This document shows positions 43,078-58,193 of a DNA stretch of 64,000 nucleotides, one piece after another. A program made the translations under genes and the position numbers. The notes beneath the pieces are model-generated. The model ran no database searches and was not told where the DNA came from. It saw nothing but the letters and a program-made list of their open reading frames with translations. Source of the DNA: Flavobacteriales bacterium (GTDB lineage: Bacteria > Bacteroidota > Bacteroidia > UBA10329); assembly GCA_016124845.1 (NCBI GenBank), contig WGMW01000004.1, positions 4,242 to 68,241 on the forward strand. The letters are read 5' to 3'. The first letter of the stretch is position 1, and each line of letters opens with the position of its first letter.

Positions 43078-43109
43078 AAGGGGTTATTTTTGCCCCGCCT
43101 TTCGGCAAT

Positions 43110-43151
43110 GGCCTCGTAGTTCAATGGATAGAATAGAAGTTTCCTAAACTT
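43110..43151 (+). repeat. 42-nt duplicate of the 5' portion (acceptor to anticodon stem) of tRNA-Arg(CCT); left attachment-site repeat of the integrated element
   Basis: GGCCTCGTAGTTCAATGGATAGAATAGAAGTTTCCTAAACTT is 41/42 identical to 49678-49719 in the intact tRNA. Confidence 0.75.
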
Positions 43152-43298
43152 GGTCAATATAACACATTGATTTTCAAATAAGTAAGCAAGTTTTTATCGA
43201 GCTTATTGTCAAACATTTAAGGTACCGCTCTTTTATGTTTACGCAGCTAGAAAATAATTGAAATCGGATCACGCATAGCGTGATCCGATTCATCACAT

Positions 43299-43784
43299 TT
43301 ACTCTTCAATGACAATGACATCATTGAATGTTGTACTGAATTGCTCAACCTGATGGGTTGGAACTATGACCACGATTCTTTCAGCGCCTAGCGCATGAGC
43401 AACACTCAATCGATGTTTGCCGTCATGAACCCAAATCTTGTTAGGCATTGGATGGGCTTGGAAATGCTTGTCTCTAAACAGCACCATAGGTGGTGTTAGT
43501 GGAACAGCCTCTTCCCATTCCAAAAGAATCTCGCATAGGGTTTCTCGGATTTGGTCACGTCTAAAAAGATGTGGTTCCCTCACGATTGGGGCGTACAATT
43601 CATCAAAGTGCTGTACCAAGTCGTCCATTGGAACTTCAATTATTGATAGCCCTTCTGGAATGATTCGTTGTACAGGTGCGTTGATGTGTTCATCGATGTC
43701 ATCAATGTCATTGAACGACCTGTGAAAAATTGGTTCAACCTGAGCAAAATGCCCATGGTTAAATAGTCTAATTACTTCTTCCAT
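43299..43784 (-). CDS. ParB/sulfiredoxin-fold (ParB-like nuclease domain) protein
   Basis: 161 aa. ...IWVHDGKHRLSVAHALGAERIVVIV resembles the ParB N-terminal (V/I)DGHHR...A motif region. Confidence 0.45.
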   Translation of the reverse strand: MEEVIRLFNHGHFAQVEPIFHRSFNDIDDIDEHINAPVQRIIPEGLSIIEVPMDDLVQHFDELYAPIVREPHLFRRDQIRETLCEILLEWEEAVPLTPPMVLFRDKHFQAHPMPNKIWVHDGKHRLSVAHALGAERIVVIVPTHQVEQFSTTFNDVIVIEE

Positions 43785-44119
43785 TGCTTTGAAGATTTCG
43801 TTTATAAAGTATCTCGGAACCAGTGTCCCTTGATACTATTAGAAGGAAATGTCAAAATGTTTCACCTATGCTGAAGAAATTCAAGAAGCCCCATTCCGCT
43901 TGACAGGAACTCCCAAGCGCAAAAAACCAATACAATCGCTAAAACCACCAAGCTGTAAACGAGAATTGCCTTACCTAGTTCGTCCTGTTGACCGTCATTC
44001 ATTGGGTTAAACCGTATCAAACGTGCTGGTGTATCAAAAAATCCTTGAGACAGGAAAGATACAGCGAGCTAGAGCGTATCTCGTTTATTCTTTTGAAACT
44101 CCTGATACACCTTTTAACC

Positions 44120-44497
44120 TTACTCTATACCTTTTCGAAATCTTGCTAACGCGTACCCGATTATACTTCCAAATAATGTTCCTAGCGTACAGTCGGTAAT
44201 GTTCTCGGTATATCCAAGAATGCATATTGGTATTACCACAGCCAGAATAGTTGCTAAATCGAACGCGTACTTCCACCACTTGGGATTAAACAGGTCGGCA
44301 AGGGATTTGCCTATTTGTCCGAATACAGGTGTGACCTTTTCTATTATCTCGGCAAGCTGTAGTTGTTTGGCTTGTTCCTCAAGTACTGAGGTCATTTGAG
44401 TAACCTGCTGCTTCAGTCCTTGATTCTCTTTGGTTAACTGTTCAATGATGTCTTCTGGTCGTGCTTCTGGTTGATGTTCCTGTTCTTCTTTGCTCAT
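44120..44497 (-). CDS. hypothetical coiled-coil protein with a C-terminal transmembrane segment
   Basis: 125-aa ORF inside the element. Confidence 0.4.
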   Translation of the reverse strand: MSKEEQEHQPEARPEDIIEQLTKENQGLKQQVTQMTSVLEEQAKQLQLAEIIEKVTPVFGQIGKSLADLFNPKWWKYAFDLATILAVVIPICILGYTENITDCTLGTLFGSIIGYALARFRKGIE

Positions 44498-44603
44498 GGT
44501 GGGGAGAATTATTTAGAAGTCCGTGATTGCAACCATCGTGCCACTAAGAAGCCAAGAATACAATAGTTTTTGAATTTGTAATAAAATTAGTTACATTAGT
44601 ACC

Positions 44604-45242
44604 ATGAAAGAAAAAGCAATAATCATATCAAGGTGTTCTACTAATGAGAACCGTCAGGATGTAACCCGTCAGTCAGAGGAACTACGGTCTAAGTATGGGC
44701 AATCGTATACTCTGGTCAAAGAATTCAGCTACTACCAATCAGGTACTAAGAATGACCAGGTGAATGATGAGATATTGGAATACGCCATTGCCAATGATGT
44801 TAAGCATATCATCGCACTCGAAATTTCACGGATTTCTCGTAAGATTTCATCGTTTGCCCTCTTCCTAGAAAATTGCAATTCTCGCCACATCAACATAATC
44901 ATAGATAACTTCGGTATGCACACCTTGCTTCCAGATGGAACGCAGAACGCCTTAATTCAGAGTACGCTTAGTATCGCGAGTGCCTTTAGTTCAATGGAGC
45001 TATCGTTGATAAAATCGAGATTGGACAGTGGACGGGAAAAATATATCCGTGATGGTGGTAAACTGGGGCGTAAGGTAGGTTCGACCGAAAGCGATGCCAC
45101 AACCCTCCAAAAACATTCGGACGTGGTAAAATACTTGAGACAACGGCAATCGGTTCGCATCACTATGAAACTCACAGGAAAAAGTAGTGGTACGGTTCAG
45201 AAGGTAAAACGAATTCTTTCAAGCACGAAGAAAGCCGCGTAA
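44604..45242 (+). CDS. serine recombinase (resolvase/invertase family) with a C-terminal HTH
   Basis: N-terminal IISRCSTNENRQD (catalytic Ser context) and a C-terminal helix-turn-helix. Confidence 0.8.
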   Translation: MKEKAIIISRCSTNENRQDVTRQSEELRSKYGQSYTLVKEFSYYQSGTKNDQVNDEILEYAIANDVKHIIALEISRISRKISSFALFLENCNSRHINIIIDNFGMHTLLPDGTQNALIQSTLSIASAFSSMELSLIKSRLDSGREKYIRDGGKLGRKVGSTESDATTLQKHSDVVKYLRQRQSVRITMKLTGKSSGTVQKVKRILSSTKKAA

Positions 45243-45257
45243 TTCACGCGGCTTTCT
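45228..45257. repeat. palindromic hairpin AAGCCGCGT-AATT-CACGCGGCTT (element-internal hairpin family, copy 1; bidirectional terminator)
   Basis: Overlaps the recombinase stop. Near-identical to the copies at 45737-45764 and 46377-46408. Confidence 0.5.
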
Positions 45258-45277
45258 TATAAGCCAAATGCTTCTGT

Positions 45278-45712
45278 TCACTTGGAACGCCTAGATTCCA
45301 CTCCCTCCTTAAATCCCTTGCAATAGCAGGGCGTTGGATTTATAAGTGAGTTGGCTGATTGATTGTGTCTCTGAACATAACTATGACAGCAACTGCTACA
45401 GTCACTACCCATATCAGAAACCATCTGACCAGCCGCAAAGCCTCGGTCATAGTCTGCTGGTCTACTACTACAATCTATGGCTTTTGGGGAATCACCACCA
45501 GTCAATTCAGCAAACCCAATCACCACCACAAGTGTTAAACACAACGTTATATACATGGAAGCCAGTAGTATCGACATCCTTCCCTTAGTAAATGCCTCCC
45601 ATACACCTACTTTCGCTATGTGCCCTTGATTCTCTCTATAGAACTTCTGAAGCAAATAAATGCTGTAAAGCAGCAGCAGAAGAAAGATTCCATTTATCAC
45701 CCAAACCATCAT
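45278..45712 (-). CDS. hypothetical membrane protein
   Basis: 144 aa with 3 hydrophobic segments. Inside the element. Confidence 0.4.
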   Translation of the reverse strand: MMVWVINGIFLLLLLYSIYLLQKFYRENQGHIAKVGVWEAFTKGRMSILLASMYITLCLTLVVVIGFAELTGGDSPKAIDCSSRPADYDRGFAAGQMVSDMGSDCSSCCHSYVQRHNQSANSLINPTPCYCKGFKEGVESRRSK

Positions 45713-45736
45713 TAAATCTAAGGATTACAATTGGAG

Positions 45737-45764
45737 GGAAAGCCGCGTGATCACGCGGCTTTCT
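45737..45764. repeat. perfect palindrome GGAAAGCCGCGTGATCACGCGGCTTTCC (hairpin family copy 2)
   Basis: Seen directly in sequence, between two minus-strand element genes. Confidence 0.5.
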
Positions 45765-45778
45765 CCATTAATATTTGT

Positions 45779-46021
45779 TCAATCACATGAACAGGTGGTT
45801 TGTGCATCACCAAGTTCGTTTTCCACCCAGTCTGTCCATTCTTCGGCATCATCAAACAGTGGGTTATTATCGGAAATGTCTTCCCAGCAAACGCCTTGTT
45901 CATAATTGGCGTAAATCGGAGTGTTCACATCTGAACATTGACAACATGGGTTTGAATTCTGACTGCATGATACAAGCAGAAGTGAGACAACCAGTAGAGG
46001 TAATGCATTGATTCTTTTCAT
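45779..46021 (-). CDS. hypothetical Cys-rich small lipoprotein
   Basis: 80 aa. Lipobox LLVSC, multiple Cys residues, acidic C-terminus. Confidence 0.4.
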   Translation of the reverse strand: MKRINALPLLVVSLLLVSCSQNSNPCCQCSDVNTPIYANYEQGVCWEDISDNNPLFDDAEEWTDWVENELGDAQTTCSCD

Positions 46022-46118
46022 GTGTTGTGATTTGGATTAATAGTTCCCCGTAAACATATAAAAATAGGTTCACATGTGAACCTATTGGGTCGAGGTCTCA
46101 TTTGCACCTTTCCAGTTC

Positions 46119-46346
46119 ATGGAATCTGAACGGGAAGTAACATTTCGAACGGCATTTGGGGAGCGTGTGAGACGTTTACGAATTGAAAAGGGGCTAAGCC
46201 AATACCAACTGGCGGACATTAGCAATCTGGACAGGTCAACCATCAAAAGAGTGGAAGCTGGCACAATAAACACCACTTTGGAAACCGCAAAGGCTATTGC
46301 CGAGGCTCTCGGAATGACACTAAGCGAGTTGGTTGACCTTGGTTAA
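46119..46346 (+). CDS. XRE family helix-turn-helix transcriptional regulator
   Basis: 75 aa. RLRIEKGLSQYQLADISNLDRSTIKRVE matches the Cro/C1-type HTH. Confidence 0.75.
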   Translation: MESEREVTFRTAFGERVRRLRIEKGLSQYQLADISNLDRSTIKRVEAGTINTTLETAKAIAEALGMTLSELVDLG

Positions 46347-46376
46347 TTGCATGGTATAAATCATTATCGGTATGAA

Positions 46377-46408
46377 GGAAAGAGCCGCGTGATCACGCGG
46401 CTCTTTCC
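46377..46408. repeat. palindrome GGAAAGAGCCGCGTGATCACGCGGCTCTTTCC (hairpin family copy 3)
   Basis: Seen directly in sequence, downstream of the XRE gene. Confidence 0.5.
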
Positions 46409-46759
46409 TCTTATTAAATCTCTAGTTGTTGCTGAATCTGTCCTATTTCTTTCCGCAGCTTTAGAATCATCAACTGTTTGCGGTATCGTTCTTTCTTAGC
46501 TAAATCGGTTTCCACCTCCACTTTTTTCTCGGCAACCGCTATTCTGCTGTCTATGTCATCTGTCATATCACTTCCTCTTCAATTGTCCTCCACGATGCGG
46601 AGGTTATTCGTCAAATTCATCATAGCGAACACGTGTTCATATCTCCCCTTTTTGGTACAGATTTTCCAAAAAATTTGCGAGGCACATGACCCGTGTTTTG
46701 TACATGATTTACATTCATCACCGATGAGTTAGGTTACGTAGTCCCCGGTCCCCTCCCCG

Positions 46760-46963
46760 TCAATCGTAGGCAGGGGGGTGTAGTGTAAACTCAATTTGTT
46801 GGTAAAGCTCACGTAAAACTTTCTTCCGTTTCTCTGGTATCTGTTTCAACCATGCGTATGACCCTGTGGCAGTTTTTGCCTCTTCCAAGTCCCTGAACAA
46901 CCTTGGATAACCATATTGTAAGACGGCTTGGTCAAATATGTCTAATTCGTAATTCTCACTCAT
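46760..46963 (-). CDS. hypothetical small protein
   Basis: 67-aa ORF overlapping the upstream gene by 8 nt, inside the element. Confidence 0.35.
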   Translation of the reverse strand: MSENYELDIFDQAVLQYGYPRLFRDLEEAKTATGSYAWLKQIPEKRKKVLRELYQQIEFTLHPPAYD

Positions 46964-47492
46964 AATCTTTCGTTTTAATAGTGGTTATGGAGACCCCCGT
47001 TTTGGTGATGTATTCTATCCATCGTTCCAAGTCGTGAACCTCTTGCTGGTAATAGTTCATTTCTGAAAATGCCGTTTTCAATAGTTGTACAAACTGATTT
47101 CGGTCTTCTGCTTTGTAGTAGGCATGAATGTGATTATGCTTGTTTACCAAGCCCTGCTCGATGGTGTAGTGGATTTCCACGTCCTTGTATCCCATTCCTC
47201 TTACTGCGTACCCGATAAGCTCGTGTATGTCACTTTCGCTAATCGGTGTGTTTGGGTCTATCGTTAACGAATAATACCCTGATGACCTTGGCAACTTACG
47301 TTTTCGCTTTCGTTGCCTCTTGAATACAGGTATTAGCATGTCGTGTATTCTCCATCCGTTCATGCCATCCTTGTATAGTACAGTTTCTGGTTTGGTCTCA
47401 GATAATTGTGCTGCAATCTTCCTTACTTGTCTCACACTGAGGTCTGTTTTCTCTGCTACCTCTTGAGTTGTGTATTCTTCCTTTCTAATCAT
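46956..47492 (-). CDS. hypothetical DNA-binding protein with N-terminal HTH and a possible HUH-type (H-I-H) motif; candidate replication/mobilisation or excision protein
   Basis: 178 aa. TQEVAEKTDLSVRQVRKIAAQL is HTH-like. Also a basic KRQRKRKRK linker and a C-terminal ...KHNHIHAYY motif. Confidence 0.45.
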   Translation of the reverse strand: MIRKEEYTTQEVAEKTDLSVRQVRKIAAQLSETKPETVLYKDGMNGWRIHDMLIPVFKRQRKRKRKLPRSSGYYSLTIDPNTPISESDIHELIGYAVRGMGYKDVEIHYTIEQGLVNKHNHIHAYYKAEDRNQFVQLLKTAFSEMNYYQQEVHDLERWIEYITKTGVSITTIKTKDYE

Positions 47493-47912
47493 TCTTTAAT
47501 CTTTAATTAAGTCCATGTCACACCCTAGTCGGAGTATCATTTGACCTCTAGCGTGACTTGGTTATTTATATATAAATAGGACGGTCTTAGTCAAAAGACC
47601 GATGTCGGACTGAAAAAGTCTGCCGAGACTTAATTAACCGAATATTTCAAGTACAAACCGTAACATTTGGTCAGTCTTGTGGTGACGTTTTGGACGCCTG
47701 AAAATGTGGTTTTAGAGCGTAACCATAATTTTAGATGGATAACCATCAACGCTTCTGATGAATCGGCAACTGGCTTAGGTTACGACTACCAGTTATTCAG
47801 GAGAAACAACAAACCGTTCGGTTCTAAAGCAAACATATCACGGATTTTTGACACTTTCCACAATTTGGATGAATTCGGGTGAAATTTGTTATGGATTGTA
47901 CCGCATTTCTAT

Positions 47913-49598
47913 TCACAAATCGAATTGGTCTCCCAGTGCTTTCAATACACTATCCGTTCGACCATCGTTAAACCCTGTCTTAAGATATGCATCTGTGACA
48001 CCCAATGAAGAATGTGCCATTGCTTTAGAAACATCCATGGTTGAAGCACCAGAATTCATCATAATGTTTGCAAAAGAAGTCCTTGGTAAATGAGTGCTGA
48101 ACGTCCTATCGATTCCAATGTGCTTCTGTAACTGCTTCAGGTGGCGATTGTAAACAATACCAGCTTTGGTGACTTTTAGGTACTGCTGTTCGTCTATGAT
48201 GGAGAAATCGTTCTGCTTACCAACGTTGGCAAAGTCCGAATCTTTAAGCATTCCAAAAACGAATCTAGTGGAGGTTCGTTCGTTTGTTGCGAACTCATTA
48301 ATAACGCCAACGCTATTATCAAAATGAATCCTGTTGAGTTCGGCTATTCGGGTTTTTATTTGCGTGACGAGGCTCTTGTAGAATAGCTCATAGTTCGCAT
48401 AGAGAGAGCTAAAGTCAAACTTGTATAAAGAATACGTGATACGTCCTTCTGATTCAACAAACTTACAAAGACAGCCCAGTTCTGTCTTTAGTTCTTCCAA
48501 TGTCATAGACATGATGACCTTTGCTGAATGCAACCAATACGACTTGTCAATAGCTACGCTAAGTGGCACATTTCCAATCAATTCATCTGGAAACCCATAC
48601 GGTGGTGTCGGTAACATGCCATATTGCATTTGTTGTAAAAGCCGTAGCCGTTCTTGTTGGAGTGCACTAACATCAGCCTGAGCCTCTATCGGAGCATTTA
48701 CATCCACTTCAAGCCCCAGCAGCCGCTTTAATAAATCCAAAATGATGTCCGTAATAGCAATATCGACAATCGCATTGGTTTTGAACATATTATAGACGAT
48801 TCTACCATTATGAAGATTTCCATACCTCAGAGTAACGAGGTCTGACACCCTCATTCCACCTGTGAAGAACTGAAATAGAAATAGGTCGCGAGCCTTAGAT
48901 AAGCGAGGAATATCAATTTTAGAATCTATAAGTTTAGTTATGTCATCTCGGTACAAACTTTCCTTCCTTTTCGGTTGTTTACGCCCATAATCATATGAAT
49001 AGAAAGGGTTGTTCCCAACAATCACGCTTTTGTCCTTTTTCGCGTGACCATAGATAACCTGTAATATTTTGAGATAATGAGTGGCAGTATTGGATTCCAT
49101 GCCCCCCTTCTTCATATAGAACCGAAATTGGTCTAAGAAATCTTGGGTCAACTCGGAGAACAACAAATCCGTCTTGCTCTCCGATGCCAAGAACTTCTTT
49201 AGTTTTTTGTACACGGTCTGAAGTTTTATTCGCGTACCCGTTTTATCCTTCAGCTTCGCACTGTTCAAATACCCTTGGTAAAACGCTAGAAATGATGCCT
49301 TACTGTTGGCACCATCGTATGTGTCGAACGACCTACCATCAGCCAACACCACCGAAAGGTGCTGCTCAATAGTGTCGTTGTATCCCTGGTAATCAATTTT
49401 AACCGACTTCTTGACCCTTTGTTTGACCTTATCCCAGTACTTAATGTCTAATGGAGGCAGTTTTAATGACCTTACACTGCTTTTGCGGTTTTCAACTCGC
49501 TGAAGGAACAAGTAGCCAAGAGTGTCATCTTTACTAATTTTGCGAAATATGACCTTGATACTTGAACTCATCAGTTTTGTCGAACAATTGTCAAACAA
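47913..49598 (-). CDS. tyrosine-type site-specific integrase
   Basis: 561 aa with the C-terminal catalytic region (...HLPRTSFANIMMNSGASTMDVSKAMAHSSLGVTDAYL, R...H.R.Y context). Lies adjacent to the tRNA-Arg attachment site. Confidence 0.9.
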   Translation of the reverse strand: MFDNCSTKLMSSSIKVIFRKISKDDTLGYLFLQRVENRKSSVRSLKLPPLDIKYWDKVKQRVKKSVKIDYQGYNDTIEQHLSVVLADGRSFDTYDGANSKASFLAFYQGYLNSAKLKDKTGTRIKLQTVYKKLKKFLASESKTDLLFSELTQDFLDQFRFYMKKGGMESNTATHYLKILQVIYGHAKKDKSVIVGNNPFYSYDYGRKQPKRKESLYRDDITKLIDSKIDIPRLSKARDLFLFQFFTGGMRVSDLVTLRYGNLHNGRIVYNMFKTNAIVDIAITDIILDLLKRLLGLEVDVNAPIEAQADVSALQQERLRLLQQMQYGMLPTPPYGFPDELIGNVPLSVAIDKSYWLHSAKVIMSMTLEELKTELGCLCKFVESEGRITYSLYKFDFSSLYANYELFYKSLVTQIKTRIAELNRIHFDNSVGVINEFATNERTSTRFVFGMLKDSDFANVGKQNDFSIIDEQQYLKVTKAGIVYNRHLKQLQKHIGIDRTFSTHLPRTSFANIMMNSGASTMDVSKAMAHSSLGVTDAYLKTGFNDGRTDSVLKALGDQFDL

Positions 49599-49677
49599 AG
49601 CTAGTATGTTCTACAAAAAATGAAGAATGTTTGATAATCAATAATCATATAAACTACTGATATTCAGTAGGTATAAT

Positions 49678-49752
49678 GGCTTCGTAGTTCAATGGATAGA
49701 ATAGAAGTTTCCTAAACTTTTGATACAGGTTCGATTCCTGTCGAGGCTACCA
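49678..49752 (+). tRNA. tRNA-Arg (anticodon CCT), with encoded CCA
   Basis: Cloverleaf readable by hand: acceptor GGCTTCG/CGAGGCT (two G-U pairs), D arm GTTC-AATGGATA-GAAT, anticodon arm GAAGT-TTCCTAA-ACTTT, T arm ACAGG-TTCGATT-CCTGT, then ACCA. Confidence 0.85.
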
Positions 49753-49758
49753 ACCAAT

Positions 49759-51474
49759 CTACATTTTCTCCGCCCACTCCAAACCATCAGGCAATTCGGA
49801 GGACGAAAACTCCAAGTGCAGCACCCTTCTCGGTTTCTGTTTCGCTGAGCGATTGGAAGAGTGAAGCAACAACGGCTTCATCAGCAACACGCCTCCTGCC
49901 GAAATTTCGCAATCGTACGGAATGCTGTTTTCTGTGATGGTTTTTATCTCATCCGTTGATAGAATTTTATTGTGACTTCCCGGCATTACGCGCAAACATC
50001 CATTCTCCCGGTCCGCATCATCTAAATGAACTCGAATGGTGAAGACGTTGCGATTGATCTCGACCGGTGGCAGCACGCTGATGACATCATCGCGCTCGGC
50101 CCAGCCAGTGAATCCTTCAACCTCCGCTTTTTGCTTCACATGAATGGTTCTATCCTGATGCCAACCTACCGACCAATTGGCACTCGGTTGCTTGTTCATG
50201 TAAATGGCTTTTACCAAAAACGCCTTCGGGTCGACAGACGATACCACGCGCTGCAAATTCTTGTTGAACAACATCGGCTTGAGCTCAGGAATGGCCTCGA
50301 GCAAGCCCCGCTTCACATAATTCTGATTGCTCTCCGCGTCAAACGCCTTTTCCAACAATCGGTTCATCTGCTTGATGGCGCGCTGGGAATACACATGATT
50401 CAGAATTCCGAAACCCTTGTGTTTCATCTTTCGCGAAGCACTGATCAACCCCTTTTCATTCAGATCGGTATTATAGAGGTCAATAGCCCCTTCCAATCTA
50501 TCGCGTATGCTTCTTTTGAGTCGCTCCGGTTTAATGACCATCAAGCCATCTCCAAAGGCCAAAAGTTCTTTCTCCAACTCAAAATTGTGCTGAACATGAA
50601 TTCTGAATGTCATGCCGTAATGGTCTCTCTCCAGCAGCTGTTGTGACCAGTGCAACGGTTTCGTCATCACGTATGGCGCATGCGTGTGATTCACGAAAAA
50701 ATCAACCTCCATCGGCTTTAAAGATGGACTGACCGAAACCCCGATCGCATCTCTGAAATAATCTTCGGCATTGAAATCAGGCCTATCCCAATAGACAGCA
50801 TCTGAATACTCGATCTGAATTATTCTGTCCAAGGCTGGAGTCATAAGTTGCGCCTGTCTGCCCTTGGCTCCGATGAGAAACCAACGGTTTCGGAACTCCT
50901 TCAACAGATACGGATGAAACTCGAATGTCTGCGGATGACGTGCCTTGAATGATTGGTACGTAAGCCGAATGACGTGCTTTTTGATGATGGCCTGATACAG
51001 CGGCTCCAAGAAATCCAACCCTTTCAGGTTCTCATTCTTTTCCATATCGATCACCGGTTTCTGATGCGTTTTCTGCGCGTAAACGTGGTCTTCGAGCTTC
51101 TGCACCATCGCATCCAATTCCTTGAAGTGCGAAAACCCTTTGAACTCCTTCAGAAACTCCACGGTCTCCATCAAACGACCAAGGTCTTGGTCAGTAATTG
51201 GAATGTTGGTGATACTGTAATCGCGGTCTTCGTAGGTGTAATACTTCTTATCGGTGACAACAATGGGCGCATTGTACCCCAACTTATCGCTGCGCATCAT
51301 CTGAATATCACCCTGCACCGTTCTCCGGCTCACGCCTTTGTCAATGCCTTCATATTCATACAACGCATCCGAAACGGCATCAATCAGATCTTCCAATGTC
51401 CATTGGCGATAATGGTTCTGCAAACACTTATCAATGGTCTTGTAGCGAATAAGCGCGTTCCGATTTACAGGCAT
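49759..51474 (-). CDS. WYL-domain transcriptional regulator fused to a C-terminal phytanoyl-CoA dioxygenase (PhyH)-like Fe(II)/2-oxoglutarate dioxygenase domain
   Basis: N-terminal HTH (NRNALIRYKTIDKCL), WYL-like core (RLTYQSFKARHPQTFEFHPYLLKEFRNRWFLIGAKG), then ~200 aa with PhyH-like motifs (WHQDRT..., ENGCLRVMPGSH, RRVLHLEF). Confidence 0.7.
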   Translation of the reverse strand: MPVNRNALIRYKTIDKCLQNHYRQWTLEDLIDAVSDALYEYEGIDKGVSRRTVQGDIQMMRSDKLGYNAPIVVTDKKYYTYEDRDYSITNIPITDQDLGRLMETVEFLKEFKGFSHFKELDAMVQKLEDHVYAQKTHQKPVIDMEKNENLKGLDFLEPLYQAIIKKHVIRLTYQSFKARHPQTFEFHPYLLKEFRNRWFLIGAKGRQAQLMTPALDRIIQIEYSDAVYWDRPDFNAEDYFRDAIGVSVSPSLKPMEVDFFVNHTHAPYVMTKPLHWSQQLLERDHYGMTFRIHVQHNFELEKELLAFGDGLMVIKPERLKRSIRDRLEGAIDLYNTDLNEKGLISASRKMKHKGFGILNHVYSQRAIKQMNRLLEKAFDAESNQNYVKRGLLEAIPELKPMLFNKNLQRVVSSVDPKAFLVKAIYMNKQPSANWSVGWHQDRTIHVKQKAEVEGFTGWAERDDVISVLPPVEINRNVFTIRVHLDDADRENGCLRVMPGSHNKILSTDEIKTITENSIPYDCEISAGGVLLMKPLLLHSSNRSAKQKPRRVLHLEFSSSELPDGLEWAEKM

Positions 51475-51615
51475 TTTGAACTTAATTTTTGAAAAAGTAG
51501 AAATTATTTTCTACTGCGCAAAAAGACTGCGCAGTGGGTCAGAAATCTTTGTCCAGTTCATTGAAATAAGGCCCTGGCGCAGAAGAGTGAAGAGGTTGCG
51601 TCAGGGCCACATTAA

Positions 51616-51691
51616 GGAGCAGTGGCAGAGATGGTCAATGCGTCCCGCTGAAAACGGGAAGATAGAGGTTCAATTCCTTTCTACTCCACCA
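51616..51691 (+). tRNA. tRNA-Phe(GAA)-like sequence with encoded CCA; possibly functional but non-canonical
   Basis: Anticodon arm TCCCG-CTGAAAA-CGGGA and T loop TTCAATT. Acceptor GGAGCAG/CTACTCC has one C-A mismatch and the D stem is weak. Preceded by a 12-bp hairpin (GGCCCTGGCGCA...TGCGTCAGGGCC). Confidence 0.45.
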
Positions 51692-51695
51692 AATT

Positions 51696-51777
51696 GGGAA
51701 TGCGCCAGCGTTGGAGAGCTGGGCCGGACTGTAAATCCGGTGTGCAAACTGAATAGGTTCGAATCCTTTCATTCCCA
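51696..51777 (+). tRNA. tRNA-Tyr(GTA)-like sequence
   Basis: Perfect acceptor GGGAATG/CATTCCC, D arm CCAG-CGTTGGAGAG-CTGG, anticodon arm CCGGA-CTGTAAA-TCCGG, long extra arm, T loop TTCGAAT. Position 8 is C, the extra arm does not pair well, and there is no CCA. Confidence 0.5.
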
Positions 51778-51949
51778 CGGTTCTTTGAAAATATTGTGCT
51801 TAGCACGCAAGGCCTTTCCCCGAAAGGGAAAGACGGAAAGCAACAGAAGTGACGGCCCGGGCACGGGTTTCTGTATGGCTCTGCAGTCTGATTCCAGTTG
51901 GAAGTTCAGATACTGCCCGATCCAATGTCCGTTTTCCGCCACGTTGTTG

Positions 51950-52095
51950 ATGGGGGTTCGAATCCCTCATTCCGAAATACGGAATTAGTTCAATGGTAGA
52001 ATGGCAACTCCAAAAGCGCAGGTTCGAATCCTGCCACCGAGAGATCGGTGTAGCTCAGCTGGCCAGAGCACTGGACGTTTAATCCAGGTTGAGAT
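51950..52095 (+). other. array of tRNA-like fragments (two T-arm/3' acceptor pieces, a Trp-like D-arm/CCA anticodon piece, a Lys(TTT)-like 5' half)
   Basis: GGGGGTTCGAATCCCTC-ATTCCG-aaata-CGGAAT-TAGTTCAATGGTAGAAT...CTCCAAA...GCAGGTTCGAATCCTGC-CACCGA-gaga-TCGGTG-TAGCTCAGCTGGCCAGAGCA-CTGGA-CGTTTAA-TCCAG. No complete cloverleaf can be closed. Confidence 0.4.
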
Positions 52096-52429
52096 AGACT
52101 CATAATCTATCATCGAGAAGCGGTCACTTCTAAAAATGACCACCCGAGAAGATCGTGCTGAGTTGGTCGGTTCCGAAACTGCTTGCAGTTGACGAACAGT
52201 CTGAAAAAGGCTCTGAAGCTTCAGGATACCGCTTGAGGAATTCAGGCCACTTTCTGTTGAGGGAGATGAATGGAGAATGCGAAATGTCGCGTTCAAAAAT
52301 CCATCCGAATCTGTAGAAACTGGTCCGAATGCAACATGCTCAATGCAGCTTCCGCCTTTGCCAGATGATCGGCTCAGCAAGGTCTTCTCTTTTAAGAGAA
52401 ATATGAATGATGAATAAATAATAGAAACG

Positions 52430-53521
52430 ATGAAACGAGTAAGAATTAACATCGGAAAAGTTGGTTTGGTATTCAGGTATGGCGATTTCACACGCGTTAT
52501 TACCGAAGGTGTACATTGGATCGGTCTGTTTGACGAGGTCAAACTTTACGACCAGACCCAGCCTTTCTACTCCACCATCAACCTGAACATTCTTTTGCGA
52601 AACACCGAACTGGTCAGCATGCTTGAAGTGGTGGAAGTGAAAGAATCGCAGATAGCACTTCAGTTTGAGAAGGACGTTTTCAAAGGTGTGCTTACCGCAG
52701 GTTCGTACGCTTTCTGGAAAGGCGTGATCGATCATCGTTTTCAGTTGATCGACCTCTCGAACTACGAAATCGCAGCGGATGTTGAGAAAGACATCTTGAC
52801 CAAACCTGAAGTATTGCGTTACGTGAGGGTTTTTGTGGTCGAGTCGTTTGAGAAAGGTCTGATGTTCGTGAATGGTGAGTTCAAGAAAGAAATGAAGGCG
52901 GGTGTGTACTACTTCTGGAAGAACACCGATGCCATCAGCTTTCAGAAAGTTGATCTGCGACAGCAGCAAATGGAGATCCCAGGTCAGGAAATTCTGACCA
53001 AGGACAAGGCTGCCTTGCGAGTGAACTTCAACGTGAAGTACAAGGTGACCGATGCACAGAAGGCGCTTGTTGAGAACAAGGACTTCGAGAAGCAACTGTA
53101 CGTAGCCGTGCAAATGGCATTGCGTGAATTTGTTGGAGGCCTGGATCTGGACGAGCTGCTTGAACGCAAGGAATCCGTGAGCGACTTCGTGCTGAAAGAG
53201 GTGAAAGCCCGAGCGGTGGTGCTTGGTATCGAGATCGCAGATTGCGGTATCAAGGACATCATCCTGCCTGGCGAAGTGAAGGACATTATGAACCGTGTTC
53301 TCATTGCGCAGAAACAGGCACAGGCCAACATCATCACCCGAAGGGAAGAAACAGCCTCTACCAGAAGCTTGCTGAACACCGCCAAGCTGATGGAAGACAA
53401 CGAGATGCTGTACAAGCTGAAGGAGATGGAATACGTTGAGAAGATCGCGGATAAGATCAATAGTATCACCCTCTCTGGAGGTGGTCAGGTTGTCAACCAA
53501 CTGAAGGAGATCTTTACCTGA
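52430..53521 (+). CDS. SPFH/band-7 domain protein (stomatin/prohibitin/flotillin superfamily)
   Basis: 363 aa with the SPFH core (...LRVNFNVKYKVTD...ELLERKESVSDFVLKEVKARAVVLGIEIADCGIKDIILPGEVKDIMNRVLIAQKQAQANII...). Confidence 0.85.
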   Translation: MKRVRINIGKVGLVFRYGDFTRVITEGVHWIGLFDEVKLYDQTQPFYSTINLNILLRNTELVSMLEVVEVKESQIALQFEKDVFKGVLTAGSYAFWKGVIDHRFQLIDLSNYEIAADVEKDILTKPEVLRYVRVFVVESFEKGLMFVNGEFKKEMKAGVYYFWKNTDAISFQKVDLRQQQMEIPGQEILTKDKAALRVNFNVKYKVTDAQKALVENKDFEKQLYVAVQMALREFVGGLDLDELLERKESVSDFVLKEVKARAVVLGIEIADCGIKDIILPGEVKDIMNRVLIAQKQAQANIITRREETASTRSLLNTAKLMEDNEMLYKLKEMEYVEKIADKINSITLSGGGQVVNQLKEIFT

Positions 53522-53534
53522 TCTCCTTCACCAT

Positions 53535-53611
53535 GGTGCCGTAGCTCAATTGGCCAGAGCACCCGACTGTCTCTCGGGCGGTTGAGGGTTCGAGTCCCTT
53601 CGGCACCGCCA
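53535..53611 (+). tRNA. tRNA-Asp (anticodon GTC), CCA encoded
   Basis: GGTGCCG-TA-GCTC-AATTGGCCA-GAGC-A-CCCGA-CTGTCTC-TCGGG-CGGTT-GAGGG-TTCGAGT-CCCTT-CGGCACC-G-CCA. Position 37 is T, which is unusual. Confidence 0.75.
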
Positions 53612-53613
53612 AT

Positions 53614-53686
53614 CAATCCATAGGTTCAATCGGTAGACTATCCGACTTTTAATCGGAGGGTGCAGGTTCGAATCCTGCTGGGTTGA
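53614..53686 (+). tRNA. tRNA-Lys (anticodon TTT)-like
   Basis: Acceptor CAATCCA/TGGGTTG (one G-U pair), anticodon arm TCCGA-CTTTTAA-TCGGA, T arm GCAGG-TTCGAAT-CCTGC. D stem needs G-U pairs. No CCA. Confidence 0.55.
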
Positions 53687-53717
53687 CAAAAGCCGTAATC
53701 CTGCCGTATCGACCAAA

Positions 53718-54479
53718 TTGGTTGAATCCTACATGAATCGCATAAGATTGAGACTATTTACTTTGCGGTCGATGAGCGCAGCGGTTCAACTTGATGCAGA
53801 AAAGATCATTGCAACGATCGATCGGCTTGAAAAGCGGATAGCAGACCGATTTCCTGATTCGGGTCTGAGGAAGATCTGTGGGGAATTTCTGGAGATTGCC
53901 AGTCACAGCAAACAGAATATCGAATGGATAGGTGCTCCGAATATTCCGCTTCGCCTGTTTTCTGCCATGGCCATTCTCATTGGCCTGAGCGGATTGATCT
54001 ACAGCATCACTTATATCGACCTGCGAATTGACAACACCACCTTGGGGAACATGGTAACGATCTCTGAGGCCGTATTCAACGACCTTGTTCTTATCGGTGC
54101 GGCCGTCTTCTTCGTTGTGAGTATCGAGTCGCGGGTCAAACGCAACCGCGCACTCAAATCGTTGAATGAACTGCGTGTGATCGCCCATGTGATCGACATG
54201 CTTCAGCTGACAAAGGACCCGAACCATTCCATGACCGGACGCGAAGACACGGTCAATTCACCGAAACGCACATTGTCGAAAGTGGAGCTGCAACGCTATC
54301 TCGATTATTGCTCTGAGGCAACTGCGCTCATTGCCAAGGTGGCCGCTCTGTATTCGCAGAGTTTGCCGGATGAAGTGGTGGTTGGCGCGGTCAATGAGAT
54401 CGAGGTGCTCAGCACAGGATTGAGCCGTAAGATCTGGCAGAAGATCATCATTCTGAACACACGCCAGACCGAAGTGTGA
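53718..54479 (+). CDS. hypothetical membrane protein
   Basis: 253 aa with two central TM helices. No recognisable family. Confidence 0.55.
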   Translation: MVESYMNRIRLRLFTLRSMSAAVQLDAEKIIATIDRLEKRIADRFPDSGLRKICGEFLEIASHSKQNIEWIGAPNIPLRLFSAMAILIGLSGLIYSITYIDLRIDNTTLGNMVTISEAVFNDLVLIGAAVFFVVSIESRVKRNRALKSLNELRVIAHVIDMLQLTKDPNHSMTGREDTVNSPKRTLSKVELQRYLDYCSEATALIAKVAALYSQSLPDEVVVGAVNEIEVLSTGLSRKIWQKIIILNTRQTEV

Positions 54480-54500
54480 GAATCATTTTATATTGAGCGC

Positions 54501-55316
54501 ATGAAAGCATACGAGAACAATCTGGATGTTTTCGCTTCCGTTTTCAAGCGATCGCTGAAACATCATTTCAGGTTTGAGGGATTGAAACTGAATAAAATGA
54601 TGGTGGTGGCAGATGAAAAGCAATTGGATCAATTGGACGCATTTGCCGAAACGTATTGCGATGCGCGACCACAGTTCGTTTATGATGAACAATTCGATTG
54701 GAACCGGCTGAAAAACTTCATCGGTCAGGAGAAACCAGATGTCATTCTTATTCAGCGTTTTCTCGGAATCCATGCGGAAGGATTGCGGTTCAGTATCGGC
54801 CCGATACTGGAAAGCATTACGCAGGAACTGAACATTCCTGTGCTGATTCTTCCCAAGGACCGTTCGGAGTTCAGGATCCGGACCATCGGCATTGGCTTCG
54901 ACCACCAGATAGACAACAGCAATTTGGTGAACAGGGCCTTGCTGATGAGCAAATTTGCCACCGCGCTGCAACTCATTCACATCGAAGATGAAAGCATCTT
55001 CAACTATTACATGGATGCCATTGCCAAAATACCGGGCATCAACACGGAGTATGCTTCCAAGAATATCAGAGAGACCATTCTTGACCTTTCTGGCGATTTC
55101 TTTTCGGATGTGAAGGAAAAGTTGGCAACCGAAAACCTGCAGGTCACCGCCCGCTGCTCTTTCGGAAATGTGGCCGCAACGTATGATCGGTTGGTGTCTG
55201 AGAACAACATCGACCTGCTTGTTTTTGAGGCCGAGGACGATTCGAAACTTGCCATGCACAGCTTGGGACAGTCACTTACCATTCAATTTCCAGAAAAAGC
55301 CGTACTGCTGGTATGA
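54501..55316 (+). CDS. universal stress protein family protein (tandem UspA-like domains), tentative
   Basis: 271 aa. Two alpha/beta halves each ending in hydrophobic ...LVF / ...VLLV strands typical of Usp domains. Assignment from recall only. Confidence 0.55.
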   Translation: MKAYENNLDVFASVFKRSLKHHFRFEGLKLNKMMVVADEKQLDQLDAFAETYCDARPQFVYDEQFDWNRLKNFIGQEKPDVILIQRFLGIHAEGLRFSIGPILESITQELNIPVLILPKDRSEFRIRTIGIGFDHQIDNSNLVNRALLMSKFATALQLIHIEDESIFNYYMDAIAKIPGINTEYASKNIRETILDLSGDFFSDVKEKLATENLQVTARCSFGNVAATYDRLVSENNIDLLVFEAEDDSKLAMHSLGQSLTIQFPEKAVLLV

Positions 55317-56686
55317 TGCTGAGTGCTGAAATAACCCACGTTTCTACAGGTGTTACCTTGATCTTCCTCGGTCTTCTGGTCCTGATGATCCTTGCGTTGG
55401 CCTTGGAAACCAAACTGCATGCACACAAATCGGTGATAACGGGTGTTACCGCTGGCATTGCGTTGCTGTTGGGCCAGTCGCTCGGAATCTTTGACGGGGT
55501 TGAAGCGCATAGCGGTCACATGAAATTCTATGTGGAGTTCATCGATTGGGGCGTGATCGCCATCATTCTCGGTTCAAGCATCTTCATCGATATCACTTCA
55601 AAAAGCGGCATCTTCTCGTGGTTGGCCATCAAACTCACCAAAATGACCAAGGGCGACCCGTTCCGATTATTGGTCTATTATTCTTTTCTCACGGTGGTGT
55701 TTTCAGCTTTGCTGAACAACGTAACGGCCATGCTCATTATCGGTTCGCTTACCGTGGTATCGCTTACCAACCTGAGGCGAAAGGACCTACTTCTCGGTTT
55801 TTTGCTTTGCGAAGGACTTCTGACCAACGTTGGAGGACTGCTTACGCTTATCAGTTCGGTTCCCAACATTATTGTGGGGAACACCGCTGGCATTTCGTTC
55901 GTCACATTTTTCATGATCTCTGCACCGTATGTGCTGTTGGCAACGGTTGCCACCATTCTTTTGGCCAGTAGACTTTTCGGTATCAACCGCCTAAAAACGG
56001 AAAAGGAGAAGAATGAAGCTGAGAAGCTGATCAACGATTTTGACGAGAAGGAAGGCGTTGATTCGGAATCGTTTTTCATTATCGGCTGGATCGCATTCCT
56101 GTCGTTCATCCTCGTGCTTGCCACTACCGATATCATTCCCTACATCAACCAGCTTGGAATCGGTTTCGTGGCCATGGCCTTTGGAGTGATGATGTTGCTG
56201 AAGGTGAAGAACCGAACGGAGGCCACATATCAGGTTTTGGACTGGGACCTGCTGTTCTTCTTTGCATTTCTGTTCGTGGTCATTGGTGCCATGGAACACG
56301 CACAGGTTCTTGGACTTATCGGTGGCTTTGTGGTGAAACTGATGTCGCTGGGAGATGTGGGAGGCCCACTTGCGTTGCTTTGGGCAAGCGCGCTTGCAAG
56401 TTCGGTCACCGATAATATTCCGCTTGCGGCCATGCTGGCCAAAACCATGTCATCGCTACCCGAATTTGCGCAGGGTTTCTGGTGGTCGGTGATCTACGGT
56501 GCAAATCTTGGCGGAAATATCACACCTATAGGTAGTGCATCAACCGTGGTGGCGGTCACCATCATCCAAAAAAACAACTTGAACCTTTCTTTTGTGGGCT
56601 TCATAGTAAAGGCCGTTCCATTTGCGCTGGTGCAACTTTTTCTTGCCAGCGTTTACGTCTATCTTATTGGAATTCAGGTGGGATAG
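55313..56686 (+). CDS. ArsB/NhaD-superfamily anion permease (citrate/arsenite transporter-like), 10-12 TM
   Basis: 457-aa polytopic membrane protein. Start overlaps the previous stop (ATGA). Two-repeat architecture with a central hydrophilic loop. Confidence 0.7.
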   Translation: MMLSAEITHVSTGVTLIFLGLLVLMILALALETKLHAHKSVITGVTAGIALLLGQSLGIFDGVEAHSGHMKFYVEFIDWGVIAIILGSSIFIDITSKSGIFSWLAIKLTKMTKGDPFRLLVYYSFLTVVFSALLNNVTAMLIIGSLTVVSLTNLRRKDLLLGFLLCEGLLTNVGGLLTLISSVPNIIVGNTAGISFVTFFMISAPYVLLATVATILLASRLFGINRLKTEKEKNEAEKLINDFDEKEGVDSESFFIIGWIAFLSFILVLATTDIIPYINQLGIGFVAMAFGVMMLLKVKNRTEATYQVLDWDLLFFFAFLFVVIGAMEHAQVLGLIGGFVVKLMSLGDVGGPLALLWASALASSVTDNIPLAAMLAKTMSSLPEFAQGFWWSVIYGANLGGNITPIGSASTVVAVTIIQKNNLNLSFVGFIVKAVPFALVQLFLASVYVYLIGIQVG

Positions 56687-56804
56687 AGGTGTTACAACAA
56701 AGCAAACGGAAATAATAACCGTATTGTCACAGACCTATCGTACCACTTTACCTCCAATCCATTAGATTTGGACAACAAACAATCGCAAAATCAAAACATA
56801 GGAC

Positions 56805-58175
56805 ATGTCCGACTCATTCGATCTTTTAGACCAGCTTGGAGATTCTAAGAAAGTGGAGAACCTCAAGGCCAAAATTCAAAAGCAAAAAACATCAGACGTA
56901 GTATCAAAACTCGATCAGATTGAATCTCAGATAGACCGCGCGGTCTCGGAACAGCGCGACCCGGAAGAGATCGTTTCCGGCATCATCGAATCGAATTTCG
57001 AAACCCTGAACGGAGATGTGAATCAGACCGAACAGGACTTGCAGGAACTGATGCTTCATTTGCGTGGCATGTTGGATTCATGCGGTGGCGAATTCTCCAA
57101 ACTTCAGGAATTGAACCCAGAGGAACTCGGATGGATAGAACAGGCCAAAAAGAAGCTGGCCGATGCCGAAAATGAGCTTGCGGGTGCCAAAGGAATGAGC
57201 AACGCTTGGAATATCCTTTTCGGCTACAAGAACAGCCAGATCTCTAAAAAGGAGCAGGAACTGACACAGAGCCAGACCAACCTGAAGGATACGGAAGCAC
57301 GCGCCAACAAAAGCTACCGCGACCGTTTGAAGAATGCAGACATTGGTGAGTCGTTGAACCGGGTGATCAGCCAAGTTCAAGGAATGGTGGGCATTATTGA
57401 GGATATGATCCTTGATGTTGAGAAGCAGATCGATGCGCTTAAAAACCGCAAGGAGCTTGCTTTTGAAACAAAGGAGAAAGCTGCGGTGGTGATGCGTGAT
57501 AAGAAAAAGGAGCTCGAAGACATTGAGGCGCAACTGAAAAATGCCGAAAATGAACTTACAGAACTGCCTAACAACAGCCCTGAATACACCGAGCAGGAGA
57601 AAAAGATCGCTGATCTGCGCGAGAAGCGCGCAACGGCCAAAGGCAGTTACAATATCGCTTTGGGCATCTTTCAAAGTAAGGAGCGTTTCGTAGATCAGAT
57701 CGTGATCCATTTGGAAGCGCAGACCACTACCAAAAACAACCTGAAGCAGTTGATCGGTCAGTTGAAGAGTGATACGGAAGAACGTGTCACCACCTACGAA
57801 TCCGGTCTTCAGCTGATTCAAACAGCCACCGCGCAAGAGGCCGCCTCGCTCTACGAAGAAGCAGGTGTGAAGACGGATCAGAAAATAACCGAGATAGCAG
57901 CGAAGGTGCTGGTAGGTTCAGAAAAAGACCGCGTGGAACGCGTGAAGAAACACCCGGAGCGTATGACCGAGCTGCATAAAGTGCTTGTGGCCATGGCTGA
58001 AGCAACTGCCAAGTACAAGCAGGAAGATGCCAAGATCATGGAGCAGCACAGCAAGAAATTCGGTATCGATGTAAAGGAAACGTTCTCGCACCGTTACGAA
58101 AAGTCGGCCGATGCGCCTGCAGCGGCTCCCTCAGAGCCAAGCAAGGACAAATCTGTGAACGACCTCATGGAGTGA
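56805..58175 (+). CDS. hypothetical long alpha-helical coiled-coil protein (first gene of the six-gene operon); possibly TelA/PspA-like, unconfirmed
   Basis: 456 aa, almost entirely heptad-like charged helices. No enzymatic motif. Confidence 0.65.
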   Translation: MSDSFDLLDQLGDSKKVENLKAKIQKQKTSDVVSKLDQIESQIDRAVSEQRDPEEIVSGIIESNFETLNGDVNQTEQDLQELMLHLRGMLDSCGGEFSKLQELNPEELGWIEQAKKKLADAENELAGAKGMSNAWNILFGYKNSQISKKEQELTQSQTNLKDTEARANKSYRDRLKNADIGESLNRVISQVQGMVGIIEDMILDVEKQIDALKNRKELAFETKEKAAVVMRDKKKELEDIEAQLKNAENELTELPNNSPEYTEQEKKIADLREKRATAKGSYNIALGIFQSKERFVDQIVIHLEAQTTTKNNLKQLIGQLKSDTEERVTTYESGLQLIQTATAQEAASLYEEAGVKTDQKITEIAAKVLVGSEKDRVERVKKHPERMTELHKVLVAMAEATAKYKQEDAKIMEQHSKKFGIDVKETFSHRYEKSADAPAAAPSEPSKDKSVNDLME

Positions 58176-58193
58176 TCGGCCTGACCGTATTTC

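Follow-up and report, generated by a model that had tools for sequence, protein, structure and literature searches.

A WYL-domain regulator with a fused PhyH-type oxygenase domain and its predicted tRNA and RNA-repair regulon in Bacteroidota

Several regulators have been described that respond to damaged nucleic acids or control RNA-repair genes. RtcR senses damaged tRNA and controls the rsr-yrlBA-rtcBA operon of Salmonella (PMC7790460), and the targets of the ribbon-helix-helix (RHH) repressor TrcR of Anabaena are rtcB, a slipin gene and an array of 26 tRNA genes that translational stress induces (PMC10272220, PMC8421152). The concept of a tRNA associated with Band-7 (b7a-tRNA) is credited to Burroughs and Aravind (2016) in bioRxiv 10.1101/312249. 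DriD and PafBC are transcription activators switched on by a ligand, and in both the WYL domain binds single-stranded DNA (PMC9186387, PMC11804915); PafBC promoters lack a -35 element and combine a normal -10 element with a -26 element specific to the factor (PMC8635444). Here we analyzed a 64,000-nucleotide stretch of contig WGMW01000004.1 from a Flavobacteriales bacterium (assembly GCA_016124845.1; hereafter the window), which contains a gene for a 571 amino acid protein that joins an HTH-WYL-WCX regulator to a PhyH-type Fe(II)/2-oxoglutarate (2OG) dioxygenase domain. In our view, this protein probably serves as the dedicated transcription factor for an RNA-damage and translational-stress regulon of Bacteroidota, acting as an activator triggered by a ligand of its WYL domain and equipped with an accessory oxygenase. 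Our confidence is high for one part of this proposal, namely that the gene regulates the adjacent unit of tRNA, tRNA-like RNA and Band-7 genes and, in relatives, rtcB, rlaP and tRNA arrays.

Regulator domains and the predicted operator and target genes

A first-pass annotation of the window had described the protein as a WYL regulator with a PhyH-like C-terminal extension, and the domain search agrees with this architecture. Pfam gives WYL (PF13280, 46.6 bits against a cut-off of 21.8), WCX (PF25583, 31.6 bits against 23.9) and PhyH above their cut-offs, together with a weak HTH_11 match at the N-terminus (E 0.2), and the PADLOC WYL model matches with an E value of 3e-25. The N-terminal region is modeled as three helices and a beta-hairpin, and in an alignment of 25 homologues it is the best-conserved part of the family. 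In this alignment, residues K192, R195, R197, W198 and R217 of the WYL domain are invariant; the four basic residues K192, R195, R197 and R217 are compatible with a nucleic-acid or nucleotide ligand. Profile matches to DriD and PafBC chains cover residues 213-330, and in Foldseek searches the first ~335 residues align along the whole of DriD (8tp8, 326 aa; ~347 columns, E 9e-11) and with PafBC (6sj9, 9fnd). The regulator belongs to the HTH-WYL-WCX class of the DriD/PafBC type; NCBIfam returned no specific family for it, and neither a CARF sensor nor a sigma54-type AAA+ domain was detected with Pfam and NCBIfam. Burroughs and Aravind, writing in NAR in 2016 and cited to this effect in PMC7824862, reportedly link WYL domains with RNA ends bearing a 2',3'-cyclic phosphate.

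When the regions upstream of the regulator ATG were aligned, a palindrome emerged, ACTGCGCA-gtcTTTT-TGCGYAGT, with the general form ACTGCGCA-N7-TGCGCAGT. In 1.48 Mb of loci we counted 109 copies of its core (YRCGCA-N7-TGCGYD), whereas composition-preserving shuffles gave 0.95 +/- 1.1 copies (maximum 4). The palindrome lies within 250 nt upstream of the regulator ATG in 61 of the 83 loci, with most sites 47-50 nt from the ATG, and its orientation is the same in 99 of 104 copies. Regulator-adjacent and cluster-internal copies share a common cassette on the operon strand, consisting of an A/T-rich tract, the palindrome, ~13 nt and the sequence nAnCTTTG, whose spacing from the operator is constant at 100 sites. 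In Bacteroidota, the -7 box of sigma-A promoters (TAnnTTTG) extends from -12 to -5 (PMC9723704). The nAnCTTTG sequence matches this box and the operator core lies ~17 nt upstream of it, so the core would span approximately -40 to -22, centered near -31. This is the usual place of the -33 TTTG box, and the cassette alignment showed no conserved TTTG box at -33 on the operon strand.

In the operon direction, the operator is followed by RtcB at 34 sites (typically 30-150 nt away), by Band-7 at 22 sites (mostly 550-1,250 nt away, a distance that leaves room for a tRNA-like RNA), by tRNA arrays at 12 sites (typically 70-125 nt away) and by RlaP at 4. Using RtcB, Band-7 and RlaP proteins as tblastn queries against the window and 83 related loci (designated here by labels such as L075), we found at least one of the three genes divergent from the regulator within 8 kb in all 25 loci with an active long regulator (flank of at least 4 kb), in 25 of 35 loci with a short form and in 2 of 5 with a degenerate form; these forms are described below. 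In Winogradskyella and Flexithrix, for instance, the regulator is divergent from Band-7, RtcB and RlaP genes. Band-7 homologues are 46-64% identical and divergent from the regulator in most of the loci that contain them, and RtcB was found in most relatives, including the closest one, L088. The first-pass annotation had suggested surveying Bacteroidota for the fusion and its neighbors; in the loci compared here, the neighbors are RtcB, Band-7 or RlaP genes, often with tRNA arrays. Two types of RtcB were observed, of ~470 and ~386 amino acids with ~25% mutual identity (loci L022, L062, L073, L074 and L082), and in some loci both lie within 10 kb.

True tRNA genes co-oriented with the repair genes were identified by ARAGORN in 24 of the 84 loci. 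Arrays within RtcB/Band-7 clusters range from 3 to 18 true tRNA genes, for example those of L075 (Dokdonia, 18), L073 (16), L025 (12), L062 (11) and L008 (8). The commonest species are Lys(UUU), Tyr(GUA), Asp(GUC), Phe(GAA) and Gln(UUG), the last tied with Asp and Phe, and the four tRNAs of the window (Phe, Tyr, Asp and Lys) all belong to this set. By analogy with the trn operon of Anabaena, the arrays look like an inducible back-up tRNA set. Known anticodon nucleases attack several of these five species, and the preference of the arrays for them points to inducible replacement of toxin-cleaved tRNAs.

Directly upstream of Band-7, Rfam tRNA and YrlA (Y-RNA-like) matches, most of them below the gathering score, are present in the window (51986-52118) and similarly in L001, L002, L025, L075 and L078; in L001 and L002 ARAGORN detected no tRNA, and the tRNA-like RNAs appear there only as sub-threshold Rfam matches. 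When the 520 nt upstream of Band-7 from 32 loci were aligned, blocks corresponding to a D-arm and a T-arm proved to be conserved, and additional conserved blocks come after them. Judged by its sequence, the non-coding region of the window matches an equivalent of the "Band-7-associated tRNA". The first-pass annotation had used this "tRNA-like array" to locate the gene; it is valid as a landmark, although not as a mere landmark, being the predicted target of the regulator. Across loci, the non-coding region upstream of Band-7 measures ~450-650 nt, which exceeds a single tRNA mimic, and its anticodon region is truncated.

In the window, the operator lies 48-49 nt before the regulator ATG, and its other side leads to the AATCTTTG box, a hairpin and tRNA-Phe at 51616, which begins 101 nt past the start of the operator core. 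Transcription is expected to start near 51556, and the operator is predicted to be aimed at tRNA-Phe, tRNA-Tyr, the tRNA-like RNA, Band-7, tRNA-Asp and tRNA-Lys. The leader hairpin could serve as a processing or attenuation signal.

We compared this arrangement with the systems introduced above. DriD (Caulobacter) and PafBC (Actinobacteria) have the same order and fold of HTH, WYL and WCX domains as the regulator; however, they control DNA-damage genes, whereas the operator described here precedes tRNAs, tRNA-like RNA, Band-7, RtcB and RlaP, and they have no enzyme domain, whereas the regulator has PhyH. The promoter layout resembles the "sigma adaptation" of PafBC, in which the operator likewise occupies the -35-equivalent region, the element itself is missing and a normal downstream box is present, but the PafBC motif (tGTCgg-N10-tA-N3-T) is unrelated to the palindrome. 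The proteobacterial RtcR, a sigma54-dependent activator with CARF-AAA+-HTH architecture, is likewise divergent from an RtcB operon with a tRNA-like non-coding RNA; it has a nucleic-acid-sensing domain and is activated by damaged tRNA, traits that the regulator may share. Nevertheless, there is no homology between the two proteins (no CARF, AAA+ or sigma54 promoter is present here), so that RtcR is a functional analogue only. The regulon content of TrcR is close to the operator targets found here (rtcB, slipin/Band-7 and a long tRNA array under one operator type), but TrcR belongs to the RHH family, binds a direct-repeat operator over the -10 box and acts by repression. Finally, the window shares with the Band-7/b7a-tRNA/RtcB RNA-repair systems a Band-7 gene preceded by a tRNA-like RNA, to which relatives add RtcB and RlaP nucleotidyltransferases; the adjacent RtcB ligase is missing from the 64-kb window by tblastn but present in most relatives. 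By analogy, the regulator may work like RtcR and TrcR, as their Bacteroidota counterpart in function and a member of the DriD/PafBC class in homology. Among the papers searched, none describes a WYL-PhyH fusion, the palindromic operator or Bacteroidota tRNA arrays co-regulated with RtcB, although Burroughs and Aravind (2016) may mention a WYL regulator; it is the present analysis that yielded the operator, the arrays of true tRNAs predicted to be co-regulated, and the three oxygenase states.

In the most likely mechanism, a dimer of the N-terminal HTH-WYL-WCX module would bind the palindrome at the position of the -33 element, the WYL domain would bind a damage-derived nucleic-acid ligand, and the factor would then recruit or adapt RNA polymerase. 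By analogy with RtcR, DriD and PafBC, the ligand may be a cleaved tRNA or another single-stranded RNA. The outcome in the window would be transcription of the divergent tRNA-Phe, tRNA-Tyr, tRNA-like RNA, Band-7, tRNA-Asp and tRNA-Lys, and in relatives the same operator would drive rtcB, rlaP and tRNA arrays of up to 18 genes. As to the sign of control, we lean moderately toward activation, again by analogy. The alternative, which we regard as rather unlikely, is that the factor is a repressor seated on an operator over the promoter and released by its ligand, as is TrcR in Anabaena. Many regulators repress from the position of the operator core, the functional analogue TrcR represses, and the operator overlaps the upstream region of the regulator itself. 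However, the closest structural relatives, DriD and PafBC, are activators; the fixed phasing of the operator and the -7 box resembles the -26 element of PafBC; and, since no -33 box is conserved on the operon strand, the promoters look activator-dependent.

The oxygenase domain and its three states

The PhyH match (residues 401-550) scores 58 bits against a cut-off of 22 in Pfam, and the 2-His-1-carboxylate triad that the first-pass annotation had proposed to verify is present. H439, D441 and H538 are invariant in 25 fused homologues, also after adding 20 stand-alone relatives, and in all forms of 571-588 amino acids, while R549 and R550 are conserved at 90% or more in both alignments. The spacing between the histidine and the arginine is 11 in human PhyH. 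The motifs noticed in the first pass are located at residues 438-443 (WHQDRT), 490-501 (ENGCLRVMPGSH) and 549-556 (RRVLHLEF). A model of residues 340-571 adopts a double-stranded beta-helix fold (predicted local distance difference test, 93.1; predicted template-modeling score, pTM, 0.90), and its best Foldseek matches are Fe/2OG oxygenases of the PhyH clade, including AviO1 (4xaa, E 4e-13), with further matches to PHYHD1, SnoK/SnoN, MysH, FtmOx1 and proline hydroxylases. The nearest solved structures share 12-22% identity with the domain at TM-scores of 0.6-0.7. From the sequence and the model, the domain is predicted to be an intact, catalytically competent Fe(II)/2OG oxygenase. Its place in a clade of small-molecule oxygenases would suit the first-pass idea that the protein could generate or sense a modified small molecule or nucleotide, which may or may not hold. 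Oxygenases of this clade (AviO1/EvdO/HygX, PHYHD1, SnoK/SnoN, MysH and FtmOx1) have the same fold, the HxD...H triad and an arginine 11 residues past the distal histidine, but they are stand-alone proteins acting on antibiotics, lipids or amino acids and none is fused to a transcription factor, whereas the domain described here is part of a regulator. In a model of the full-length protein, the individual domains are confident, overall pTM is 0.46 and no interdomain packing is confident, with low-confidence segments at residues 90-150, 242-245 and the WCX-PhyH junction (328-336); the model therefore provides no structural argument on contact between PhyH and WYL.

The first-pass annotation had considered the fusion unusual, which the searches do not support in the sense of rare. 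The protein search returned at least 7,918 matches among 8,000 scored candidates, and a collection with one genome per species contained at least 590 relatives, nearly all from Bacteroidota or Balneolales. The best 120 homologues are all single proteins of 541-611 amino acids, 119 of them with the same three Pfam domains. Named homologues, whose annotation is just "WYL domain-containing protein", belong to Winogradskyella, Psychroserpens, Flexithrix, Roseivirga, Catalinimonas and Limibacter. The WYL-PhyH fusion is common, not rare, across Bacteroidota. Mis-binning is possible for two relatives taken from metagenome-assembled genomes that bear the labels Glaciecola and Comamonadaceae.

Three states are seen among the orthologues of the N-terminal module, which are 55-70% identical. 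The active long form (571-588 amino acids) has the full triad; the degenerate form (521-568 amino acids) retains a recognizable PhyH-like domain in which the metal ligands are replaced and W438 and Q440 are mostly kept; and the short form (333-360 amino acids), present in Chitinophaga, Spirosoma, Dyadobacter, Emticicia, Cellulophaga, Dokdonia, Balneola and others, is devoid of the PhyH domain. In a neighbor-joining tree of the shared region, degenerate forms fall at scattered places inside the active clade, which also includes a few nested short forms, a pattern that implies repeated inactivation and loss of the oxygenase. By its sequence, the degenerate domain appears to be a pseudo-enzyme with a non-catalytic role. 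All three states keep the same operator. Since orthologues share operator and regulon irrespective of an intact, dead or missing oxygenase, this domain would be accessory and not the core of the switch, and the distribution of forms is best matched by a module for accessory input or feedback. We found no clear correlation between PhyH presence and operon content among the loci compared. In the loci that come from anaerobic Bacteroidales or Lentimicrobiaceae, the domain is always either dead or missing (n=4), which, together with the repeated loss of catalytic residues, fits with an O2-dependent activity.

Within the proposed mechanism, PhyH would sit on a flexible tether as an accessory input or feedback module, dispensable for operator recognition and for the choice of regulon, and it may report O2, iron or 2OG status or chemically modify the ligand. 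We raise only tentatively, as a doubtful extension, that this could be the first transcription factor whose WYL nucleic-acid sensor is gated or reset by a Fe(II)/2OG/O2-dependent reaction. In one version the oxygenase would hydroxylate or oxidatively destroy the RNA-derived ligand, which would provide a built-in off-switch comparable to ring nucleases in fusions with CARF sensors; in the other version it would report iron, oxygen or 2OG status. If such gating were true, a single protein would couple a phylum-wide emergency regulon for spare tRNAs and RNA repair to both RNA damage and the redox/metabolic state of the cell.

The PhyH domain could instead be an independent RNA/tRNA repair or modification enzyme, fused to the regulator for co-expression only, which we think unlikely. 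The invariance of the triad in all forms of 571-588 amino acids would suit such an enzyme, as would three Chitinophaga loci in which a short regulator is accompanied, in the same cluster, by a stand-alone PhyH protein (35-39% identical) encoded by the third and last gene of an overlapping RlaP2-RlaP1-PhyH operon. However, this operon has no operator of its own; several lineages keep the domain with all metal ligands lost, a condition in which a pure enzyme would not survive; and the structural neighbors act on small molecules, not on nucleic acids. Furthermore, the stand-alone homologues of Emticicia, Pedobacter and two other contigs, which share 67-70% identity with the Chitinophaga protein, have no operator and lie among unrelated genes that vary between them, so the link to repair is lineage-specific. 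We rejected the oxygenase as a general RNA-repair component on account of these four homologues, and the case for a direct repair role of the PhyH domain is weak. Stand-alone PhyH relatives of 225-250 amino acids form 298 clusters at E <= 1e-30.

In one of the Chitinophaga loci (L078:3781-7599 and 11038-12642), the overlapping RlaP2-RlaP1-PhyH operon adjoins the gene of a DUF5690 membrane protein, the gene of a DUF6377/TPR protein overlaps the stop codon of the short regulator, and the tRNA arrays include a tRNA-Ile with the unusual anticodon UAU.

Weight of the evidence and relation to defense

A number of observations weigh against the regulator being an RNA-damage activator with an accessory oxygenase. 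First, 22 of the 83 loci have no strict match to the palindrome within 250 nt upstream of the ATG (many have one farther off), and 31 operator copies lie ahead of other genes of unassigned identity. Second, tblastn found neither RtcB nor RlaP in the 64-kb window, and the local regulon in this genome would include only tRNAs, the tRNA-like RNA and Band-7. Third, the operator and promoter assignments are comparative inferences; an operator overlapping the promoter region is also compatible with repression, and the T-rich spacer makes a TTTG on the strand of the regulator, a possible sign of autorepression. Finally, the PhyH-domain structures nearest to the domain, at 12-22% identity, act on unrelated small molecules, and the retention of dead domains argues for some non-catalytic role.

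The first-pass annotation had placed the regulator in the context of defense or DNA-damage loci. A regulator of an anti-phage defense or DNA-damage locus, like BrxR, CapW, PafBC or DriD, would account for the WYL domain, for the matches to CRISPR-associated WYL models of PADLOC and for the structural similarity to DriD and PafBC. We consider this reading very improbable, because the operator copies precede RtcB, Band-7, RlaP and tRNAs and not DNA-repair or defense genes, and no neighbor belongs to any PADLOC defense family: the matches of the regulator itself are to generic WYL models (CRISPR-associated ones included), and none was obtained for the seven neighboring proteins. It is possible that RNA repair acts as a counter-defense against tRNA-cleaving toxins, which would provide a link to conflict through RNA only. 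That the fusion is an artefact of a sequencing error or missed frameshift can be set aside, since no evidence for it was found, the frame is continuous, as the first-pass annotation had read it, and the same single-protein architecture recurs in thousands of independent isolate and metagenome assemblies.

With the regulator taken as the proposed RNA-damage factor, one problem has apparently been solved three times by unrelated regulators, namely RtcR in Proteobacteria, TrcR in cyanobacteria and, by our inference, a WYL factor in Bacteroidota. The problem they share is to sense damaged translation RNA and to switch on an RNA ligase, a Band-7 scaffold with a tRNA mimic and back-up tRNAs. This suggests that WYL sensors, tied so far to DNA damage and phage defense, can also control RNA repair. 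The 23-bp operator, the promoter model, the regulon and the natural series of active, dead and missing oxygenases make up a testable model in Bacteroidota, in which the role of a tethered Fe/2OG oxygenase within a transcription factor would be approachable by biochemistry.

The window and its closest relative

The features of the window are listed in Table 1, together with the tRNA arrays and degenerate forms of related loci. In accordance with the first-pass annotation, the regulator gene lies between a tRNA-Arg occupied by an integrated element and a region of tRNA and tRNA-like sequences, as determined with ARAGORN, Rfam and repeat analysis.

Table 1. Coordinates of the regulator, its predicted target unit and related features (window positions unless a locus is named)
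Feature	Position	Strand	Basis or remark
Regulator gene, 571 aa, HTH-WYL-WCX-linker-PhyH	49759-51474	-	Uninterrupted ATG-started open reading frame (ORF); Pfam; full-length homologues
Winged-HTH DNA-binding region, ~residues 1-85	51220-51474	-	Family conservation, model, structure alignment; Pfam HTH_11 weak
WYL domain, residues 155-222, presumed ligand sensor	50809-51012	-	Pfam PF13280, PADLOC WYL model
WCX domain, residues 254-330	50485-50715	-	Pfam PF25583, profile matches to DriD/PafBC chains
PhyH-type Fe(II)/2OG dioxygenase domain, residues 340-571	49762-50457	-	Pfam, invariant triad, model, Foldseek
Triad codons H439, D441, H538	50158-50160, 50152-50154, 49861-49863	-	Invariant in alignments
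Codon of 2OG-binding Arg R549	49828-49830	-	11 residues past H538
Predicted operator, 8-7-8 palindrome ACTGCGCA-AAAAGAC-TGCGCAGT (plus-strand reading)	51513-51535		Comparative; sole copy in the 64-kb window
Predicted -7 box AATCTTTG (consensus TAnnTTTG) of divergent tRNA/Band-7 operon	51544-51551	+	Fixed spacing from operator
Leader hairpin between predicted start site and tRNA-Phe	51570-51608	+	13-bp, GC-rich, -26.8 kcal/mol, z = -5.2
tRNA-Phe(GAA) and tRNA-Tyr(GUA) (Tyr 51696-51778)	51616-51778	+	ARAGORN; Rfam tRNA, 64.8 and 38.4 bits
Conserved non-coding region with tRNA-like/YrlA-like modules (e.g. 51977-52044, 52044-52118)	51779-52429	+	Sub-threshold Rfam matches
SPFH/Band-7 (slipin-like) protein, 363 aa	52430-53521	+	Pfam Band_7, E 1e-30
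tRNA-Asp(GUC) and tRNA-Lys(UUU), directly 3' of Band-7	53535-53687	+	Co-oriented; ARAGORN, Rfam
6.57-kb integrated mobilisable element in tRNA-Arg(CCT)	43107-49719		45-nt direct repeat; neighbor of the system, not part of it
tRNA arrays	L075:4986-6503, L073:388-2082, L025:2792-4133, L062:86-1070, L008:9061-9861; window 51616-51778, 53535-53687
Degenerate-form loci	L017, L031, L032, L034-L037, L039, L042-L044		C-terminal 190-230 aa of regulator

Past tRNA-Lys, a run of co-oriented ORFs (53718-62507), syntenic with L088, encodes proteins of 253 and 271 amino acids with no Pfam match, a transporter of the CitMHS/ArsB type, two more unknown proteins, an AAA ATPase and a DUF6638 protein. A scan for sigma70-type promoters and terminators, which is uninformative for Bacteroidota, gave no convincing terminator in the window.

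The closest relative, L088, has a regulator protein 96% identical to that of the window, and its synteny with the window spans positions 49756 to 61464, ending inside the last four regulator codons (...AEKM* against ...SEQMMIPN*). The nucleotide identity between the two is 92-96%; nevertheless, the tRNA-Tyr of the operon is present only in the window and a tRNA-Leu(UAG) (L088:7839-7913) only in L088, which points to rapid gain and loss of operon tRNAs and suggests that the tRNA content of the operon turns over fast. Directly downstream of the regulator, L088 encodes rtcB and an RF-1-family (PrfH-like) gene (L088:11729-14130), while the window has tRNA-Arg and the gene for methionyl-tRNA synthetase (MetRS) there. 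This difference had raised the idea that a large mobile element (>49 kb) separates the regulator from rtcB-prfH in the window, which we rejected because the element measures just 6.57 kb and beyond it come MetRS and further housekeeping genes. On the 3' side of the regulator, the two genomes are simply not alike.

The integrated element encodes a tyrosine integrase (47913-49598), a relaxase-like ORF (46956-47492) and a resolvase (44604-45242). The tRNA-Arg(CCT) gene (49678-49752) abuts the stop codon of the regulator, and the two copies of the direct repeat (43107-43151 and 49675-49719) are 98% identical and duplicate the 5' part of this tRNA. It is unusual that the duplicated segment corresponds to the 5' half of tRNA-Arg and not to its 3' half.

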